A stretch of DNA of 64,000 bases from Escherichia coli (GCF_011045215.1 NZ_CP049201.1); one strand, 5' to 3'; shown: positions 3,664 to 61,576, counted from the first letter of the stretch. Numbers and translations are program-made. Notes: generated from the sequence alone by a model not told the origin.

Positions 3664-4653
3664 ATGAAACTCGCCGTTTATAGCACAAAACAGTACGACA
3701 AGAAGTACCTGCAACAGGTGAACGAGTCCTTTGGCTTTGAGCTGGAATTTTTTGACTTTCTGCTGACGGAAAAAACCGCTAAAACTGCCAATGGCTGCGA
3801 AGCGGTATGTATTTTCGTAAACGATGACGGCAGCCGCCCGGTGCTGGAAGAGCTGAAAAAGCACGGCGTTAAATATATCGCCCTGCGCTGTGCCGGTTTC
3901 AATAACGTCGACCTTGACGCGGCAAAAGAACTGGGGCTGAAAGTAGTCCGTGTTCCAGCCTATGATCCAGAGGCCGTTGCTGAACACGCCATCGGTATGA
4001 TGATGACGCTGAACCGCCGTATTCACCGCGCGTATCAGCGTACCCGTGACGCTAACTTCTCTCTGGAAGGTCTGACCGGCTTTACTATGTATGGCAAAAC
4101 GGCAGGCGTTATCGGTACCGGTAAAATCGGTGTGGCGATGCTGCGCATTCTGAAAGGTTTTGGTATGCGTCTGCTGGCGTTCGATCCGTATCCAAGTGCA
4201 GCGGCGCTGGAACTCGGTGTGGAGTATGTCGATCTGCCAACCCTGTTCTCTGAATCAGACGTTATCTCTCTGCACTGCCCGCTGACACCGGAAAACTACC
4301 ATCTGTTGAACGAAGCCGCCTTCGATCAGATGAAAAATGGCGTGATGATCGTCAATACCAGTCGCGGTGCATTGATTGATTCACAGGCAGCAATTGAAGC
4401 GCTGAAAAATCAGAAAATTGGTTCGTTGGGTATGGACGTGTATGAGAACGAACGCGATCTGTTCTTTGAAGATAAATCCAACGACGTGATCCAGGATGAC
4501 GTATTCCGTCGCCTGTCTGCCTGCCACAACGTGCTGTTTACCGGGCACCAGGCATTCCTGACAGCAGAAGCTCTGACCAGTATTTCTCAGACTACGCTGC
4601 AAAACTTAAGCAATCTGGAAAAAGGTGAAACCTGCCCGAACGAACTGGTTTAA
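3664..4653 (+). CDS. ldhA: Fermentative D-lactate dehydrogenase (NAD-dependent)
   Basis: 329-aa ORF MKLAVYSTKQYDKKYLQQVNESFGFELEFFDF..., NAD-binding GxGxxG (GVIGTGKIG); matches E. coli LdhA. Confidence 0.97.
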   Translation: MKLAVYSTKQYDKKYLQQVNESFGFELEFFDFLLTEKTAKTANGCEAVCIFVNDDGSRPVLEELKKHGVKYIALRCAGFNNVDLDAAKELGLKVVRVPAYDPEAVAEHAIGMMMTLNRRIHRAYQRTRDANFSLEGLTGFTMYGKTAGVIGTGKIGVAMLRILKGFGMRLLAFDPYPSAAALELGVEYVDLPTLFSESDVISLHCPLTPENYHLLNEAAFDQMKNGVMIVNTSRGALIDSQAAIEALKNQKIGSLGMDVYENERDLFFEDKSNDVIQDDVFRRLSACHNVLFTGHQAFLTAEALTSISQTTLQNLSNLEKGETCPNELV

Positions 4654-4763
4654 TCTTGCCGCTCCCCTGCAATCCAGGGGAGCTGATTCAGATAATCCCC
4701 AATGACCTTTCATTCTCTATTCTTAAAATAGTCCTGAGTCAGAAACTGTAATTGAGAACCACA

Positions 4764-5186
4764 ATGAAGAAAGTAGCCGCGTTTGTTGCGCTAAGCCTGC
4801 TGATGGCGGGATGTGTAAGTAATGACAAAATTGCTGTTACGCCAGAACAGCTACAGCATCATCGCTTTGTGCTGGAAAGCGTAAACGGTAAGCCCGTGAC
4901 CAGCGATAAAAATCCGCCAGAAATCAGCTTTGGTGAAAAAATGATGATTTCCGGCAGCATGTGTAACCGCTTTAGCGGTGAAGGCAAACTGTCTAATGGT
5001 GAACTGACAGCCAAAGGGCTGGCAATGACCCGTATGATGTGCGCTAACCCGCAGCTTAATGAACTCGATAACACCATTAGCGAAATGCTGAAAGAAGGTG
5101 CACAAGTGGATCTGACCGCGAACCAGTTAACGCTGGCGACCGCGAAACAGACATTAACTTATAAGCTGGCGGATTTAATGAATTAA
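4764..5186 (+). CDS. hslJ: Heat-shock lipoprotein HslJ (META domain)
   Basis: Track ORF begins at TTG 4752; ATG at 4764 gives MKKVAAFVALSLLMAGC... (140 aa, lipobox). Confidence 0.9.
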   Translation: MKKVAAFVALSLLMAGCVSNDKIAVTPEQLQHHRFVLESVNGKPVTSDKNPPEISFGEKMMISGSMCNRFSGEGKLSNGELTAKGLAMTRMMCANPQLNELDNTISEMLKEGAQVDLTANQLTLATAKQTLTYKLADLMN

Positions 5187-52579: not shown

Positions 52580-53044
52580 ATGAGAAGAAAACGCGAAGAA
52601 ATCGCATCGCCAGAAGCTACGCAGCGTCTGCGCGCAGTCTGGGATGCAAAAAAAAGAGAGCTCAAACTGACTCAGGAGCTTGCTGCTGAGCTGATGGGCT
52701 TTGAGACTCAATCCACAGTTAGCCACTATCTCAACGGAAAGGCTCCACTAAACACTGATGCAGCATTAAAATTCGCTGTATTACTAAGAGTTAAGCCTGA
52801 AGAGTTGAGGCCTGATTTAGCTGATCTGATGAATTACGTCCGTTCTTCAGGAACTTATGACGAAAGTTTCGAAGGCGAAGGTTGGCGGATGGTTAACAAG
52901 CAACAAGCTGATTTACTGGATCTTTTTGAAATCCTACCCGAATCAGAAAAAGCAAAACTAATCGAAAGGCTTAAAGGTCAGAATGAACTCTACAAAGAAG
53001 CGTTTGAAAAGATGCTGGCAGCTCAGAAACGCATGAAGAAATAG
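52580..53044 (+). CDS. Prophage repressor, RacR-like (XRE-family HTH)
   Basis: 154-aa ORF, N-terminal HTH (LTQELAAELMGFETQSTVSHYLNGK); divergent from cro-like gene. Confidence 0.65.
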   Translation: MRRKREEIASPEATQRLRAVWDAKKRELKLTQELAAELMGFETQSTVSHYLNGKAPLNTDAALKFAVLLRVKPEELRPDLADLMNYVRSSGTYDESFEGEGWRMVNKQQADLLDLFEILPESEKAKLIERLKGQNELYKEAFEKMLAAQKRMKK

Positions 53045-53279: not shown

Positions 53280-53585
53280 ATGACATTTACTCAGGGTATT
53301 GACCCGCTAGAAACGAATAATGCTGTATTTTGTCTGGCGTATGAATTGTCTGTACAGGCATCAACAATGGCAAAGGAAAGAGAGCTAACTCCAGGGCAGG
53401 CACGTCTCGCACTGGAACTCGCCAGCCGGGTATCAGTAGCAAAAAAAATCGCACCAGCCGTAATGGCACGAAACCTGGCTGATGCAATTACAGATCTCAG
53501 GTCACTACAACCATACAATTATCATGTCGAAGAGGTATTAGAAAAATTAATCGCTGCTGCCGACGCCATCATTGATGAACTGTAA
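53280..53585 (+). CDS. Hypothetical early protein
   Basis: 101-aa ORF with AAGGGGAGAG RBS. Confidence 0.4.
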   Translation: MTFTQGIDPLETNNAVFCLAYELSVQASTMAKERELTPGQARLALELASRVSVAKKIAPAVMARNLADAITDLRSLQPYNYHVEEVLEKLIAAADAIIDEL

Positions 53586-53853
53586 TAATTGATATGCGGG
53601 AATTTCTATTCCTGAGAGATGCATTTTTCACGCCCGGACAACGCCCGGCAATTGCCAGATTCAGTTTTTCACGCTGCTCTGGCGTAAGAAGTTTAACAAG
53701 TTCTTCAAGAACAAGCGCGGTAGCCTCTAATCTGGCGGAAAGATAATCAATATTTTTGTGTTGAGATTGAATAGGCATAAGCAATTCCTTACTGGTTGTG
53801 TGAGAGCGCCAGTATACCACCGAGCCTGAAGTGGTAAAAAAAGACAAGCACAC
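53569..53853 (-). CDS. Hypothetical protein
   Basis: 94-aa track ORF opposite to early-left transcription; weak. Confidence 0.25.
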   Translation of the reverse strand: MCLSFFTTSGSVVYWRSHTTSKELLMPIQSQHKNIDYLSARLEATALVLEELVKLLTPEQREKLNLAIAGRCPGVKNASLRNRNSRISIITVHQ

Positions 53854-54198: not shown

Positions 54199-54417
54199 AT
54201 TGCTCATCACTTCGGAACTGATGAAATACCACGTCAGTGTGTGACTCCTGGCGATTATGTTCTTCATGAAGGTCGGACATATATCGCCTCAGCAAACAAT
54301 ATTAAAAAGCGAAAACTTTATATTCGTAGCCTGACTACAAAAACATGCATTTCTGACTGCATGATTAAAGTCTTCCTCGGTCGTGATGGTTTACCTGTAA
54401 AGGCGGAGTCATGGTGA
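54199..54417 (+). CDS. Hypothetical early protein
   Basis: Track ORF starts at GTG 54178; ATG at 54199 with GGAGA upstream. Confidence 0.35.
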
Positions 54418-54587
54418 TGACTAAGAAAATAAAATGTGCTTACCACCTTTGCAATAAAGGAATTGAAGAAAGCAAAAGCATTAAAAGACCACTTCATTTC
54501 ATGCGTGGAGTTATCCCAACGACGGAAATGAAAAAATATTGTAGTGAAAATTGTGCCGAAAAAGACCAGATGGCACACGAACTCTAA
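54417..54587 (+). CDS. Small Cys4 zinc-ribbon protein (56 aa)
   Basis: Not in track. ATG overlaps upstream stop (TGATGA); encodes [56 protein letters not shown]. Confidence 0.45.
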   Translation: MTKKIKCAYHLCNKGIEESKSIKRPLHFMRGVIPTTEMKKYCSENCAEKDQMAHEL

Positions 54588-54661
54588 TTAACTGACTATT
54601 CGAAACTGAATTTATGCCAGCAATGGCAGGGATTCTTTCAACCTTAAAAAAGGAAACAGCA

Positions 54662-54961
54662 ATGCACAAGCATATTAAATGTGAAATTGAACTTGATGTT
54701 ATTAACGATTCTCTCGCCGAATTTAAATGCGGGAATACATTACATGGTTTTATTCAGATTTCCCAAAAAGAAAACATTACGGTAATTATTGATGGTGGTT
54801 ACGTTCTGGGAACATTTGATTGTGATGCATGTGCCCTTAAAGAAGTCGCATTACTCGCAGCTCGTATTGAAGAGGCTGACAAGAAATACGGTATCAGTTA
54901 TCAACGACTGAAAGAACTCTCTTATATCGCATCATCAGTTCATTTCTTTTATGCAATCTGA
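54662..54961 (+). CDS. Hypothetical early protein
   Basis: Track ORF 54614..54961; internal ATG at 54662 with AAGGAAA upstream. Confidence 0.35.
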   Translation: MHKHIKCEIELDVINDSLAEFKCGNTLHGFIQISQKENITVIIDGGYVLGTFDCDACALKEVALLAARIEEADKKYGISYQRLKELSYIASSVHFFYAI

Positions 54962-54985: not shown

Positions 54986-56887
54986 ATGAGCATAAAACAA
55001 CACTTCCTGTTACGGAAAGCGAAAAAATCATCCGGTGAACCTGACGCAGTTCTGTGGGCAAGCGACGATCTCGAATCGACCAGTGCCACTCTGGACTACC
55101 TGATTGTTAAGTCAGGTAAAAAACTGAGCAACTATTTTAAAGCTGTTGCTACGAATTTTCCTGTCGTTAACGACCTGCCCCCAGAAGGGGAGATCGATTT
55201 TACGTGGTGTGAACGCTATCAACTCGGCAAGGACTCCATCACCTGGGAACTAAAACCAGGTGCAGCACCAGACGACGTTCACCATCAGGAGAATATCCCG
55301 GAAACTGAAGAACTGGCTGGAGACCAGGAAGAAAACGCGCAGGCGGACGCTCACGGGGATTGCCAGGATTGCGAAGTTCCTGTAGCCACACTCAGTCTTA
55401 CTCATCGTTTCCTTCATCTCTTCTTTTTCGGTCAGATGGAAGGTGGAAAATACAGTAGTCACGCCACGCCGGAACAGCGCAATACCGTCATCCGGATGGA
55501 GCTGGATACGGAGGACAGCTACCTCCAGAGTCTGCTTACAGCAGTACGCTCTCATCCTGAACTGGATAAGCTGACAAACCACCATCTTGGCAGACTGGCG
55601 GAGTCTGTATCCAGAGTGTTTACCCACACAGAAACCCGTTGCATCAGCCCCGCTGAATTCGACAAATTCATTTCCACCTGGATGAAAACTGATTATCTGG
55701 ATCAGGGATTACTGACAAAAGAATGGGCGAAGGGAAACTGCGTATCTGAAATCAATCGCACCCCGTCGGGCGCTAATGCCGGTGGCGGTATCCTTACCGA
55801 CCGTGGAGAAGGTTTTGTCCATGATGATGCATCAGTAGCGCGTGACGTAGCCGCTGGCGTACTGGCACGTTCAATGGATATCGATATTTACAATCCACAT
55901 CCAGCACACGCTAAACGTATTGGGGAAATTGTCGCTGAAAATAAACCGCCATTTTCTGTTTTTTTCAGCAAATTCATCACCATGCCTGGCCACAAGGATT
56001 TCTCCCGCGCCATCGTGGTTGCGTCCGTGAAAGAAGCGCCAGTCGGTATAGAGGCTACCCCACACCATGTCACTGAATATCTGAACAGGGTGCTGACTGA
56101 AACCGATCATGCCAACCCTGATCCGGAAATCGTGGATATTGCCTGCGGTCGCTCCTCTGCCCCGATGCCACAGCGTGTAACAGAAGAAGAAAAACCGCAA
56201 CCATCTTGCGCAATGGCAGATGAACAGGCAACGGCTGAAACAGTGGAACCGGATACAAGTGAACATCATCAGGACACGCAGCCGCTGGATGCCAAGTCAC
56301 AGGCCGATGCGAAATATCAGAAACTGCGGGAAGAACTCCATGAAGCCCGGAAAAACATTCCGCCCAAAAATCCTGTCGATACAGACAAAATGCTGGCAGT
56401 CCATCGCGGTGAGTTCGTTGAAGGAATTAGCGACCCGAATGATCCGAAATGGGTGAAGGGAATTGAAACCCGCGATTCTGTGAACCAGAACCTGCCAGAA
56501 ACGGAAAAAACCAGTCAGGATGTGAAACAACCTGAGCCAGTAGTGCAACGGGAACCGGAAATAGTCTGCACCGCCTGCGGTCAGAGCGGTGGCGGCAACT
56601 GCCCTGATTGTGGCGCGGTGATGGGCGACGCAACATATCAGGAAACATTCGATGAAGAGAATCAGGCTGAAACTCAGGAAAATGATCCGGAGGAAATGGA
56701 AGGCACTGAACCATCATTAGAAAAACTCGACTGGAAAAGACAAGTGGTGATTGCGGCTGTTTATGGTTTGTGTGCGAATCCTGCAGGTATAGCCTCAGCG
56801 CCATTAATTCCGGGTATTGCAATGATGATTGCCAACAAGCTTGAAAATTTTGGGGTGACGGATGATGAGCACATACCCGATTTTTGA
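54986..56887 (+). CDS. Large hypothetical early-left protein (633 aa), acidic, C-terminal CxxC...CxxC and hydrophobic tail
   Basis: Long ORF between immunity region and gam; motif [16 protein letters not shown] then hydrophobic [30 protein letters not shown]; no family recognised. Confidence 0.6.
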
Positions 56888-57161
56888 TCGCATTGAAGAG
56901 CTGGCATGGTCACGCCACTACCAGCAGATCGTTCGCGAAGAAAAAGAAACGGAGCTGGCAGACGACCTGGAAAAAGGTCTACCCCAGCACCTGTTTGAAT
57001 CGCTCTGCATCGACCATTTGCAACGCCACGGTGCCAGCAAACAGGCAATCAGTCGCGCATTTGATGACGATGTTGAATTTCAGGAACGCGTGGCGGAACA
57101 CATCCGGTACATGGTTGAAACCATTGCTCGTCACCAGGTTGATATTGATTTGAAGGTATAA
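56862..57161 (+). CDS. gam: Gam, RecBCD inhibitor (lambda Gam-like)
   Basis: 99 aa; ...[42 protein letters not shown]... closely matches lambda Gam; precedes bet. Confidence 0.85.
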
Positions 57162-57166
57162 AACAA

Positions 57167-57952
57167 ATGAGTACAGCACTTGCAACACTGGCCGGGAAGC
57201 TGGCTGAACGTGTCGGCATGGATTCTGTCGACCCACAGGAACTGATCACCACTCTTCGCCAGACAGCATTTAAAGGCGATGCCAGCGATGCGCAGTTCAT
57301 CGCATTGCTGATCGTCGCCAACCAATACGGCCTTAATCCGTGGACGAAAGAAATTTACGCCTTCCCTGATAAGCAGAACGGCATCGTTCCGGTGGTGGGC
57401 GTTGATGGCTGGTCCCGCATCATCAATGAAAACCAGCAGTTTGATGGCATGGACTTTGAGCAGGACAATGAATCCTGTACATGCCGGATTTACCGCAAGG
57501 ACCGTAATCATCCGATCTGCGTTACCGAATGGATGGATGAATGCCGCCGCGAACCATTCAAAACCCGCGAAGGCAGAGAAATCACCGGACCGTGGCAGTC
57601 GCATCCCAAACGAATGTTGCGGCATAAAGCCATGATTCAGTGTGCCCGTCTGGCCTTCGGATTTGCTGGTATCTATGACAAGGATGAAGCCGAGCGCATT
57701 GTCGAAAATACCGCATACACTGCAGAACGTCAGCCAGAACGCGACATCACTCCGGTTAACGATGAAACCATGCAGGAGATTAACACTCTGCTGATCGCCC
57801 TGGATAAAACATGGGATGACGACTTATTGCCGCTCTGTTCCCAGATATTTCGCCGCGACATTCGCGCATCGTCAGAACTGACACAGGCCGAAGCAGTGAA
57901 AGCTCTTGGATTCCTGAAACAGAAAGCCACTGAGCAGAAGGTGGCAGCATGA
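57167..57952 (+). CDS. bet: Bet (Red-beta) single-strand annealing protein
   Basis: 261 aa, [35 protein letters not shown]..., essentially lambda Bet. Confidence 0.95.
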
Positions 57953-58629
57953 CACCGGACATTATCCTGCAGCGTACAGGGATCGACGTGAGAGCTGTCG
58001 AACAGGGGGATGATGCATGGCACAAATTACGGCTCGGCGTCATCACCGCTTCAGAAGTTCACAACGTGATAGCAAAGCCCCGCTCAGGAAAGAAGTGGCC
58101 TGACATGAAAATGTCCTACTTCCACACCCTGCTGGCTGAGGTTTGCACCGGTGTGGCTCCGGAAGTTAATGCTAAGGCGCTGGCCTGGGGAAAACAGTAC
58201 GAGAACGACGCCAGAACCCTGTTTGAATTCACTTCCGGCGTGAATGTTACTGAATCCCCGATCATCTATCGCGACGAAAGTATGCGCACCGCCTGCTCTC
58301 CCGATGGTTTATGCAGTGACGGCAACGGCCTTGAACTGAAATGCCCGTTTACCTCCCGGGATTTCATGAAATTCCGGCTCGGTGGTTTCGAGGCAATAAA
58401 ATCGGCTTACATGGCCCAGGTGCAGTACAGCATGTGGGTGACGCGAAAAGATGCCTGGTACTTTGCCAACTATGACCCGCGTATGAAGCGTGAAGGCCTG
58501 CATTATGTCGTGGTTGAGCGGGATGAAAAGTACATGGCGAGTTTTGACGAGATGGTGCCGGAGTTCATCGAAAAAATGGACGAGGCACTGGCTGAAATTG
58601 GTTTTGTATTTGGGGAGCAATGGAAATGA
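57949..58629 (+). CDS. exo: Exo (Red-alpha) 5'-3' exonuclease
   Basis: 226 aa, [40 protein letters not shown]..., essentially lambda Exo. Confidence 0.95.
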
Positions 58630-58856
58630 GCGCAGCCACAAAGCTCACAGGAGAAAAACCAGTGCGATACACAAAAATTAAACCATGTCCATTTTGTGGT
58701 TGTCCATCAGTAACGGTGAAAGCCATTTCAGGATATTACCGAGCGAAGTGTAACGGATGCGAATCCCGAACCGGTTATGGTGGAAGTGAAAAGGAAGCAC
58801 TCGAAAGATGGAATAAACGAACCACTGGAAATAATAATGGAGGTGTTCATGTATAA
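58620..58856 (+). CDS. Lar-family restriction alleviation protein (RalR-like)
   Basis: 78 aa with zinc-ribbon motif KPCPFCGC...CNGCE typical of Lar. Confidence 0.6.
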
Positions 58857-59037
58857 AATTACCGCCACTATTGAAAAGGAAGGTGGCACTCCTACTAACT
58901 GGACAAGATATTCAAAATCTAAACTAACGAAATCAGAATGCGAAAAAATGCTCTCAGGTAAAAAAGAAGCGGGCGTTTCCAGAGAGCAGAAAGTAAAACT
59001 GATAAATTTTAATTGCGAGAAACTTCAGTCCTGGTGA
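58849..59037 (+). CDS. Hypothetical small protein
   Basis: Track ORF 58777..59037; internal start [10 protein letters not shown]... assumed. Confidence 0.35.
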   Translation: MYKITATIEKEGGTPTNWTRYSKSKLTKSECEKMLSGKKEAGVSREQKVKLINFNCEKLQSW

Positions 59038-59136
59038 ATTGCATTGTATTCAAATTAAAACTTCATAGCTGATTATTAATAATCAACATCGGGCGTCAAT
59101 TTCAGTCTAACATTGGCGCCTGCCAGAGGTGATGCG

Positions 59137-59352
59137 ATGGCACAAGTAATCTTTAATGAAGAGTGGATGGTTGAATACGGCCTGATGCTTCGCACTGGTC
59201 TGGGGGCCAGACAAATTGAAGCATACCGCCAGAACTGTTGGGTGGAAGGCTTCCACTTCAAACGAGTATCTCCTTTAGGGAAGCCAGACAGTAAGCGAGG
59301 GATTATCTGGTACAACTATCCAAAGATAAATCAGTTTATCAAAGACTCATGA
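59137..59352 (+). CDS. Excisionase (Xis, Rac XisR-like)
   Basis: Track ORF starts at TTG 59113; ATG at 59137 with GAGGTGA upstream; [22 protein letters not shown]...; immediately upstream of int. Confidence 0.6.
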
Positions 59353-59353
59353 T

Positions 59354-60589
59354 ATGTCTAAATTACCAACAGGTGTCGAGATTCGAGGTAAATACATTCG
59401 CATCTGGTTCATGTTTCGAGGAAAACGATGCCGGGAAACATTGAAAGGCTGGGAGGTTACTAACAGTAACATTAAAAAAGCCGGGAATTTAAGAGCGTTG
59501 ATAGTTCATGAAATCAATTCCGGTGAATTTGAGTATTTAAGACGTTTCCCCCAGTCCGGCACTGGGGCAAAAATGGTGACAACTAGGGTCATAAAAACGT
59601 TCGGGGAGCTTTGTGATATCTGGACAAAAATTAAAGAGACAGAGTTAACAACAAACACAATGAAGAAAACGAAATCACAATTAAAAACACTCAAGATAAT
59701 AATTTGTGAGAGTACCCCGATATCGCATATTCGTTATAGCGATATCTTAAACTACCGGAATGAACTGCTGCATGGAGAAACGCTTTACCTGGATAATCCA
59801 AGATCCAACAAAAAAGGAAGAACCGTGCGCACAGTTGATAACTATATCGCCCTACTCTGTTCGCTGTTACGTTTTGCGTATCAGTCGGGATTTATATCAA
59901 CCAAACCATTTGAAGGAGTAAAAAAATTACAGCGAAACAGAATAAAGCCTGACCCGTTATCTAAAACAGAATTCAATGCATTAATGGAAAGTGAAAAAGG
60001 ACAGAGCCAGAACTTATGGAAATTTGCCGTTTACTCAGGACTTCGTCACGGGGAACTGGCAGCTCTGGCGTGGGAGGATGTGGATCTCGAGAAGGGAATT
60101 GTGAATGTCAGAAGAAACCTGACGATACTTGATATGTTCGGTCCCCCAAAAACAAATGCCGGGATCCGGACAGTAACACTACTGCAGCCTGCTCTTGAAG
60201 CACTGAAGGAGCAATACAAACTGACCGGACATCATCGCAAAAGCGAAATCACCTTTTATCATAGGGAGTACGGCAGAACCGAAAAGCAAAAACTGCATTT
60301 TGTTTTCATGCCCAGGATGTGTAACGGAAAACAGAAACCTTATTACTCGGTAAGCAGTTTGGGTGCGAGATGGAATGCAGCAGTAAAACGTGCTGGTATT
60401 CGCCGCCGTAATCCGTACCATACGCGGCATACTTTTGCCTGCTGGCTGTTGACGGCAGGAGCGAACCCGGCGTTTATAGCCAGCCAGATGGGGCATGAAA
60501 CTGCGCAGATGGTGTATGAAATTTACGGTATGTGGATTGATGACATGAACGACGAACAGGTAGCCATGTTGAATGCGCGGTTATCGTAA
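59354..60589 (+). CDS. Site-specific tyrosine integrase
   Basis: 411 aa; C-terminal catalytic region HTRHTFACWLLTAGANPAFIASQMGHETAQMVYEIYG (R...HxxR...Y); next to attR. Confidence 0.9.
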   Translation: MSKLPTGVEIRGKYIRIWFMFRGKRCRETLKGWEVTNSNIKKAGNLRALIVHEINSGEFEYLRRFPQSGTGAKMVTTRVIKTFGELCDIWTKIKETELTTNTMKKTKSQLKTLKIIICESTPISHIRYSDILNYRNELLHGETLYLDNPRSNKKGRTVRTVDNYIALLCSLLRFAYQSGFISTKPFEGVKKLQRNRIKPDPLSKTEFNALMESEKGQSQNLWKFAVYSGLRHGELAALAWEDVDLEKGIVNVRRNLTILDMFGPPKTNAGIRTVTLLQPALEALKEQYKLTGHHRKSEITFYHREYGRTEKQKLHFVFMPRMCNGKQKPYYSVSSLGARWNAAVKRAGIRRRNPYHTRHTFACWLLTAGANPAFIASQMGHETAQMVYEIYGMWIDDMNDEQVAMLNARLS

Positions 60590-60640: not shown

Positions 60641-61576
60641 ATGCAAGAAAATCAAAAGAATACGAAGAAAGAGATATACAATCTGAACAAATTACAAAAA
60701 CGCCTGCGTCGTAACGTGGGCGAAGCCATTGCTGACTTCAATATGATTGAAGAAGGCGATCGCATCATGGTTTGCCTCTCCGGGGGTAAAGACAGCTATA
60801 CCATGCTGGAGATTCTGCGCAATTTGCAGCAAAGCGCGCCAATCAATTTTTCGCTGGTGGCTGTTAACCTCGATCAAAAGCAACCGGGCTTCCCGGAACA
60901 CGTTCTGCCCGAGTATCTTGAAAAGCTGGGCGTTGAGTACAAGATTGTTGAAGAGAACACTTACGGTATCGTGAAAGAGAAGATTCCAGAGGGCAAAACC
61001 ACTTGCTCACTGTGTTCTCGGCTACGTCGCGGTATCCTTTATCGCACCGCAACGGAACTGGGGGCGACGAAGATCGCGTTGGGCCACCATCGTGACGATA
61101 TCCTGCAAACGTTGTTCTTAAATATGTTCTACGGCGGTAAGATGAAAGGTATGCCTCCGAAACTGATGAGCGATGATGGCAAACATATCGTTATTCGTCC
61201 GCTGGCCTACTGCCGCGAGAAAGATATTCAGCGATTTGCCGATGCAAAAGCGTTCCCGATTATTCCGTGCAACCTGTGCGGTTCACAGCCTAACCTGCAA
61301 CGTCAGGTGATTGCTGACATGTTGCGTGACTGGGATAAACGTTATCCAGGGCGTATCGAGACGATGTTCAGCGCGATGCAGAATGTGGTGCCGTCGCATC
61401 TGTGCGATACCAACCTGTTCGATTTCAAAGGCATCACCCACGGTTCTGAAGTGGTTAACGGGGGTGATCTTGCGTTTGATCGCGAAGAGATCCCACTACA
61501 ACCGGCGGGCTGGCAGCCAGAAGAAGATGAAAATCAGTTGGATGAGTTACGGCTGAATGTGGTTGAAGTGAAATAA
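60641..61576 (+). CDS. ttcA: tRNA 2-thiocytidine(32) synthetase TtcA (5' end and promoter supplied by prophage DNA)
   Basis: 311 aa; PP-loop SGGKDS, CxxC clusters; N-terminal 11 codons differ from the ttcC remnant. Confidence 0.95.
60676..60690. repeat. attR core (15-bp direct repeat ATACAATCTGAACAA) inside ttcA codons 12-17
   Basis: Identical to 11532..11546. Confidence 0.8.

Follow-up and report, generated by a model that had tools for sequence, protein, structure and literature searches.

RecE and RecT of the Rac prophage are routinely used for recombineering and direct cloning. [quoted passage not shown] As related there, linear-linear recombination proceeds better with full-length RecE, a fused protein, than with the nuclease domain (Fu 2012, via PMC11611040 and PMC11610958). 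In the Rac prophage of E. coli K-12, recE occupies the operon position after kilR, ydaE and racC and is followed by recT. A second point of reference is phage lambda, where the early-left genes kil, cIII, ea10, ral and sieB have in common with the gene described below their operon and the position directly upstream of gam; these accessory genes of lambda are, however, short and show no sequence relationship to it.

The DNA analysed here (the window; 64,000 nucleotides of E. coli) contains a Rac-type E. coli prophage at the ttcA site, and the flanking host DNA (ttcA-dbpA-zntB) has 99.6% identity with E. coli genomes. From the repressor to the host boundary, the following features were assigned.

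52580-53044, + strand: RacR-like repressor, at the head of the early-left gene order
53280-53585, + strand: ORF of 101 aa, between the repressor and kilR
53569-53853, - strand: ORF of 94 aa, between the repressor and kilR
54178/54196-54417, + strand: kilR (basis for the upstream genes, NF008465 and NF041288)
54411-54587, + strand: ydaE (same basis)
54614-54961, + strand: gene of 115 aa in the racC position (phrog_2434, unknown function)
54986..56887, + strand: RecE-N gene, 633 aa (ORF, NF007259, phrog_607, PF06630, BLASTP, dN/dS)
56862..57161, + strand: gam, host-nuclease inhibitor (phrog_259, E 4e-53; 80% identity to lambda Gam)
57167..57952, + strand: bet, lambda-type annealase (TIGR01913, E 7e-50; 95% DNA identity to lambda)
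57949..58629, + strand: exo, lambda-type 5'-3' exonuclease (TIGR03033; 95% lambda DNA identity up to 58640)
58620..60589, + strand: ralR, a DUF1187/rcbA-like gene, xisR and intR (NF007260, NF007283; annotations of the homologous loci L001 and L002)
60641-61576: ttcA, abutted by the distal end of the Rac-type prophage

The gene order of K-12 Rac matches that of the window, except that recE-recT stands in place of the 633-aa ORF and gam-bet-exo; at the position of the 101-aa and 94-aa ORFs, furthermore, K-12 Rac carries ydaF and sieB. Neither of these two ORFs has a match in PHROGs, and the 101-aa one has none in NCBIfam or PADLOC either. The 115-aa gene is not the racC of K-12, there being no DNA homology over 54655-54954; phrog_2434 is its only match, and PGAP labels its homologue in one genome "DNA breaking-rejoining protein" and elsewhere "hypothetical protein". 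No strong terminator-like site was noticed on the + strand between 53085 and the integrase gene, which bears out the placement of the 633-aa ORF in the early-left operon by the initial annotation of this DNA.

The ORF at 54986..56887 opens with ATG, which is preceded by GAGG 11 nt upstream, and runs for 633 aa with zero internal stops. As had been noted from the sequence, the product is strongly acidic (pI 4.75; 109 D+E versus 59 K+R), and the stop codon overlaps the start of gam: the TGA is at 56885-56887 and the ATG of gam at 56862 or 56865, so that 23-26 nt are shared. The gene is thus predicted to be translationally coupled to gam.

The initial annotation had called the protein unrecognised, and in this respect it was mistaken; nor is the protein missing from Rac, and the clear homology to a known protein that the annotation itself had named as grounds for refutation is present. 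NCBIfam NF007259 (exodeoxyribonuclease VIII) aligns with residues 1-578 at model positions 1-578 of 877 (E 2.4e-242), Pfam Exonuc_VIII (PF06630) with residues 4-183 at model positions 3-203 of 203 (E 9.1e-60), and phrog_607, named "exonuclease", with residues 5-579. In a BLASTP comparison with K-12 RecE (866 aa), 63% of the residues are identical between 1-575 of our protein and 1-565 of RecE, the zinc-ribbon motif included. Residues 1-578 accordingly correspond to the N-terminal region of Rac RecE. An identical protein is, moreover, present in NCBI as "hypothetical protein EGX56_12110" and as "RecE family exodeoxyribonuclease" on 15 contigs. The gene thus encodes the non-nuclease, N-terminal part of RecE-family proteins as a protein in its own right.

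Given the names "RecE family exodeoxyribonuclease" in NCBI and "exonuclease" in PHROGs, the protein might be supposed to be an active exonuclease, a supposition that we find barely credible. Its match to NF007259 stops at position 578, leaving the nuclease positions 579-877 unmatched, and the score of 806.8 bits is under the curated cutoff of 1269 bits because the last 300 model positions are absent. BLASTP against the nuclease part of K-12 RecE returned only noise, the Pfam scan of the protein gave neither DUF3799 nor any other nuclease family, and the activity of RecE is located in the C-terminal part of that enzyme (PMC11611040, PMC11610958). Nor is recT found downstream of the gene, where gam, bet and exo stand instead. 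The protein therefore fails three of the four features that define RecE (nuclease domain, score cutoff and recT partner) and ought not to be classed with exodeoxyribonuclease VIII; the name "RecE family exodeoxyribonuclease" is a misnomer for such nuclease-less proteins. Rather, the protein belongs with stand-alone RecE-N/YdfE-type proteins that end in a hairpin. While the sequences are already in the databases, our searches of the PMC and bioRxiv literature gave no paper on nuclease-less RecE, on the function of YdfE or on the conserved tail, and the architecture and the tail are thus without a paper in those searches.

The structure of the protein was predicted by AF2 on a 98-sequence alignment (mean pLDDT 77.7), and the following parts were distinguished.

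54986..55297, + strand, residues 1-104: alpha/beta domain at the N-terminus, of all segments the one most like RecE (AF2 confident over 1-100)
55373..56185, + strand, residues 130-400: all-helical core (AF2 confident; motifs including DYSRA and TETDHxNP)
56567..56611, + strand, residues 528-542: zinc-ribbon-like CxxC-x7-CxxC, common to RecE
56711..56884, + strand, residues 576-633 (58 aa): tail, standing where RecE carries its nuclease domain
56726-56848, + strand, residues 581-621 (~40 residues): conserved hairpin within the tail

Within the core, residues 236-400 are predicted with pLDDT above 90, and BLASTP matched them in 93 of the 150 best representatives; no solved structural relative of the core was found. 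AF2 further places a helix pair at residues 438-473 and disordered acidic linkers at 100-130, 400-437 and 480-577, the last of which contains the zinc ribbon. The C-terminal CxxC...CxxC motif pointed out in the initial annotation stands as a motif, with C528, C531, C539 and C542 invariant in a five-sequence alignment including K-12 RecE. Its reading as a zinc ribbon is less well grounded; the Pfam match is marginal (DZR, E 0.51) and AF2 confidence is low at residues 528-542. Distant tail-bearing members have a different helical segment at this position. Searches of solved structures by sequence gave only noise for the whole protein and for the tail profile, and the best 50 of 317 Foldseek matches in AFDB50 (E <= 0.001) all came from enterobacteria and were annotated as exonuclease VIII-type, as DNA breaking-rejoining or as uncharacterised proteins.

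The gene is a mosaic, and its DNA tells where the segments meet. Homology to K-12 Rac breaks off at 56711 and is picked up again at 58678, in ralR, with 98.6% identity; lambda homology (95%) begins inside gam and spans 56907-58640. The intervening 56712-56906, which takes in the tail and the opening codons of gam, resembles neither Rac nor lambda and is found with 90-96% identity in other E. coli prophages. In this Rac-type prophage, therefore, the nuclease half of recE together with recT is exchanged for the hairpin and gam-bet-exo. The tail was also considered as the leftover of kil, the lambda gene upstream of gam, and this was rejected, as lambda homology starts only at 56907 and kil is unrelated. 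Exactly at 56711/56712, where the RecE-homologous part gives way to the tail, the window copy lacks 72 bp that are present in the sibling prophages L001, L003 and L006; this deletion is in frame and costs 24 residues of the acidic linker (EHxHKENAGSDPHRDCSDETGEAAAS). Further mosaicism is seen inside the gene. Residues ~105-235 (55296-55699) have no homology to K-12 recE and are ~83% identical in amino acids to the type found in O104:H4 and Stx phages, and residues 236-400 closely resemble K-12 and L006 and are far from L003 (dN 0.65).

Such a mosaic invites the reading that the gene is a non-functional remnant, that is, a recE truncated by recombination with a lambda Red cassette whose frame has stayed open by chance. 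The junction deletion, the internal mosaicism and the verdict of PGAP are all in keeping with this reading: PGAP is inconsistent on the nuclease-less architecture, calling it either an intact "RecE family exodeoxyribonuclease" or a pseudogene, and flags the homologues at L001 6970-8775 and L004 1724-3496 as "incomplete; missing C-terminus" (compare L003, L005 and L006). Against five homologues, nonetheless, whole-gene dN/dS by the Nei-Gojobori method was 0.19-0.35 (dS 0.76-1.27), and codons 576-625 of the tail, outside the gam overlap, gave 0.03-0.21 (dS 0.16-0.93); the ratio is well below 1 in every segment, including the tail that is not derived from RecE. The long ORF upstream of gam is hence real, as first annotated, and purifying selection speaks against a fortuitous frame. 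The 72-bp deletion, moreover, keeps the frame, the tail is an old conserved C-terminal motif (see below), and the gene is intact in complete phage genomes and hundreds of E. coli contigs. Indeed, the order RecE-N-tail-gam-bet-exo with its stop/start overlap is intact at another Rac site, at the ynfG/intD site of O104:H4 2011C-3493 (690 aa; cluster of 604 members) and in two phages deposited as complete genomes, Shigella phage 75/02 Stx and PhiR5_2. RecE-N-tail-gam is also present beside a yfaA-side integrase, and the tail peptide matches an "exodeoxyribonuclease VIII" gene in POCJ13 (peptide match only). The remnant reading is thus largely refuted and, in our estimation, highly improbable; the RecE-N gene is to be regarded as maintained and not as debris.

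In the prophage next to yfaA in E. coli CFSAN029787 (L004), RecE-N and gam are followed not by bet-exo but by a 365-aa "AAA family ATPase" (3944-5041), a third recombination-module partner for the RecE-N and gam pair.

The tail is predicted to form a two-helix hairpin (helices 583-597 and 605-621; pLDDT 55-77) and follows the motif L-[TS]-[YFW]-x-QQLTIAALQGLCANPA-x5-D[DE][IL]PxMAxxLA, or in its short form QQLTIAALQGLCANPA..DDIPxMA, at the extreme C-terminus. An exhaustive search over 1.84 billion representatives yielded 242 relatives, of which the best 150 were compared. BLASTP matched the tail in 23 of these 150; in 19 of the 23 it is the C-terminal end, in proteins of >400 aa. Over their whole length, the tail-bearing representatives from Enterobacterales (~20 clusters) have no more than 21-31% identity with the window protein, and yet, of the seven invariant columns in a 24-sequence alignment, six belong to the tail, namely A590, A591, G594, C596, N598 and P599; the hairpin also keeps Q and D positions. 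Among the best 150, no tail-bearing relative has the RecE nuclease as well, tail and nuclease being mutually exclusive C-termini. When the tail profile was searched against 5.8 billion proteins, only short fragments annotated as "exodeoxyribonuclease VIII (partial)" or hypothetical were matched, which indicates that the tail is absent from other protein contexts. Its DNA is present in 105 of 5426 complete E. coli genomes.

The hydrophobic C-terminal stretch described in the initial annotation does exist, the Kyte-Doolittle 19-residue maximum being 1.62 at residues 587-605. Its suggested role as a membrane anchor fares less well: this maximum is borderline, an N-P-A-G break lies inside the segment, the predicted helices are 15 and 17 residues long, the hydropathy of the homologous segment is 0.5-1.3 in 16 of 24 members, under the transmembrane threshold of 1.6, and the hairpin has conserved Q, N and D positions. 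We would not take the tail for a convincing membrane anchor, and a tail anchor of the SieB type does not seem to be present.

The last nine codons (56858-56884) overlap the start of gam, and the protein end reads DDEHIPDF. The sibling numbered 006 ends in DDEYMPNF and P0123/P0127 end in SDERLPDF; the O104:H4/Stx-phage type ends in GGDKS, a DDEHIPDF-like end being absent there and in distant members. E. coli SSB has an acidic C-terminal tip (..DFDDDIPF) that is bound by many DNA-metabolism proteins. The DDEHIPDF end resembles this tip. An interaction between Red-beta and SSB is the subject named in the title of PMC6393309.

In terms of known families, the window protein thus stands between two kinds of relatives. 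With RecE of K-12 it has in common the operon position, the prophage type and the ttcA site, whereas RecE continues into a nuclease domain followed by recT and the window protein ends in the hairpin followed by lambda gam-bet-exo; residues 105-235 are, furthermore, unrelated to RecE. With the tail-bearing RecE-N proteins of Rac/Qin-like prophages in Enterobacterales, which include the 682-690 aa "exodeoxyribonuclease VIII" proteins of O104:H4 prophages and Shigella phage 75/02 Stx, it has in common the helical core, the hairpin motif, the early-left position and the stop overlap. It differs from them in its RecE-type N-terminus, the 24-aa in-frame deletion before the hairpin and the longer DDEHIPDF end. 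The E. coli and Stx-phage members of this group have gam-bet-exo downstream as in the window, whereas the distant members are without Red genes nearby. Tail-bearing members match either PF27430 and PF27432 (YdfE_N/YdfE_C) or PF06630 in precomputed Pfam hits; PF27430/PF27432 are recorded for P0124, P0075 and P0118 and absent from the scan of the window protein, for which the Pfam library may predate them. A further group, located next to dicB-ydfD in Qin-like prophages, has the N-terminal module (N-module) and the operon position in common with the window protein, but carries a catalytic DEDD (Rv2179c-like) 3'-5' exonuclease domain in place of the hairpin.

These arrangements allow a proposal on function. 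The N-module would assist phage DNA-end processing and recombination as an accessory or scaffold that is itself non-catalytic, acting in cis on its own nuclease in RecE and in trans alongside Gam, Bet and Exo in the window prophage; the hairpin may then be a docking or oligomerisation element, filling the role that a covalently attached enzyme domain has in the fused forms. We favour this model because the N-module is repeatedly joined to exonucleases, the gene is positioned before recombination genes, and full-length RecE has the published advantage in linear-linear recombination. Indeed, a Pfam scan of the C-termini of 98 family members gave the DUF3799 PD-(D/E)XK nuclease in 22, the Rv2179c-like DEDD 3'-5' exonuclease in 13 and RecT in three; the others have the hairpin or some further kind of C-terminus. 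For the accessory model as a whole, we hold the considerations for and against to be about evenly balanced.

The RecT fusions were also considered as Rosetta-stone evidence and were down-weighted, since at least P0003 looks like a deletion product of recE-recT. In this 703-aa protein, residues 1-529 of RecE-N are joined directly to residues 84-268 of RecT, and a deletion across recE-recT within a cryptic Rac prophage, not a designed fusion, is its probable origin.

The main evidence against the accessory model comes from the tail-bearing relatives in prophages of other Enterobacterales, whose place is between kilR and xis-int and which have neither gam, bet and exo nor recT in their vicinity. 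The module thus needs no phage recombinase, and the partner of the hairpin cannot, in general, be a Red protein. A common downstream partner gene was looked for in the distant loci as well and none emerged; DUF7740, DUF1187, an Rrf2-type gene or unknowns are found instead. Relatives of this sort, with no adjacent recombinase and with a varying downstream gene, speak for another reading, in which the protein is an autonomous early-left effector for anti-defence, host takeover or exclusion, its hairpin binds a conserved host protein, and the nuclease fusions, RecE included, are secondary. The place of the gene in the early-left operon, alongside kilR and not far from ralR, the strong acidity with long disordered acidic linkers, the hairpin as the most conserved element and an N-module that has no known function in the literature (PMC11611040) would all suit such an effector. 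The repeated joining of the N-module to exonuclease domains does not, however, and no likeness to known anti-defence folds was seen; a search of PADLOC-DB returned 0 families at E <= 0.01, and the short, broken helices and low hydropathy of the tail count against a membrane version. The host-takeover, superinfection-exclusion or anti-defence role proposed in the initial annotation consequently found nothing specific in its support, and we consider the effector reading doubtful, if deserving of attention. The accessory model remains the one that we prefer.

A narrower form of the effector reading, in which the RecE N-terminal/YdfE module is autonomous, its invariant C-terminal hairpin engages a conserved host DNA-metabolism protein and Rac RecE is a secondary fusion of that module to a nuclease, is in our view rather unlikely. 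If it were true, the nuclease-less form beside lambda Red in the window would be the natural "split" state, and the N-terminal two-thirds of RecE could be studied alone.

In conclusion, the N-terminal two-thirds of RecE occurs naturally as a separate gene under purifying selection, in this prophage as in its relatives from O104:H4 prophages and Stx phages, with a conserved hairpin of its own, and stands here beside lambda Red, a different system of recombination. For proteins of this nuclease-less kind, both the label "RecE family exodeoxyribonuclease" in the databases and the pseudogene flag that is occasionally set are misleading. The separate RecE-N gene provides a clean genetic handle on the module alone, and its 40-residue hairpin can serve as bait.
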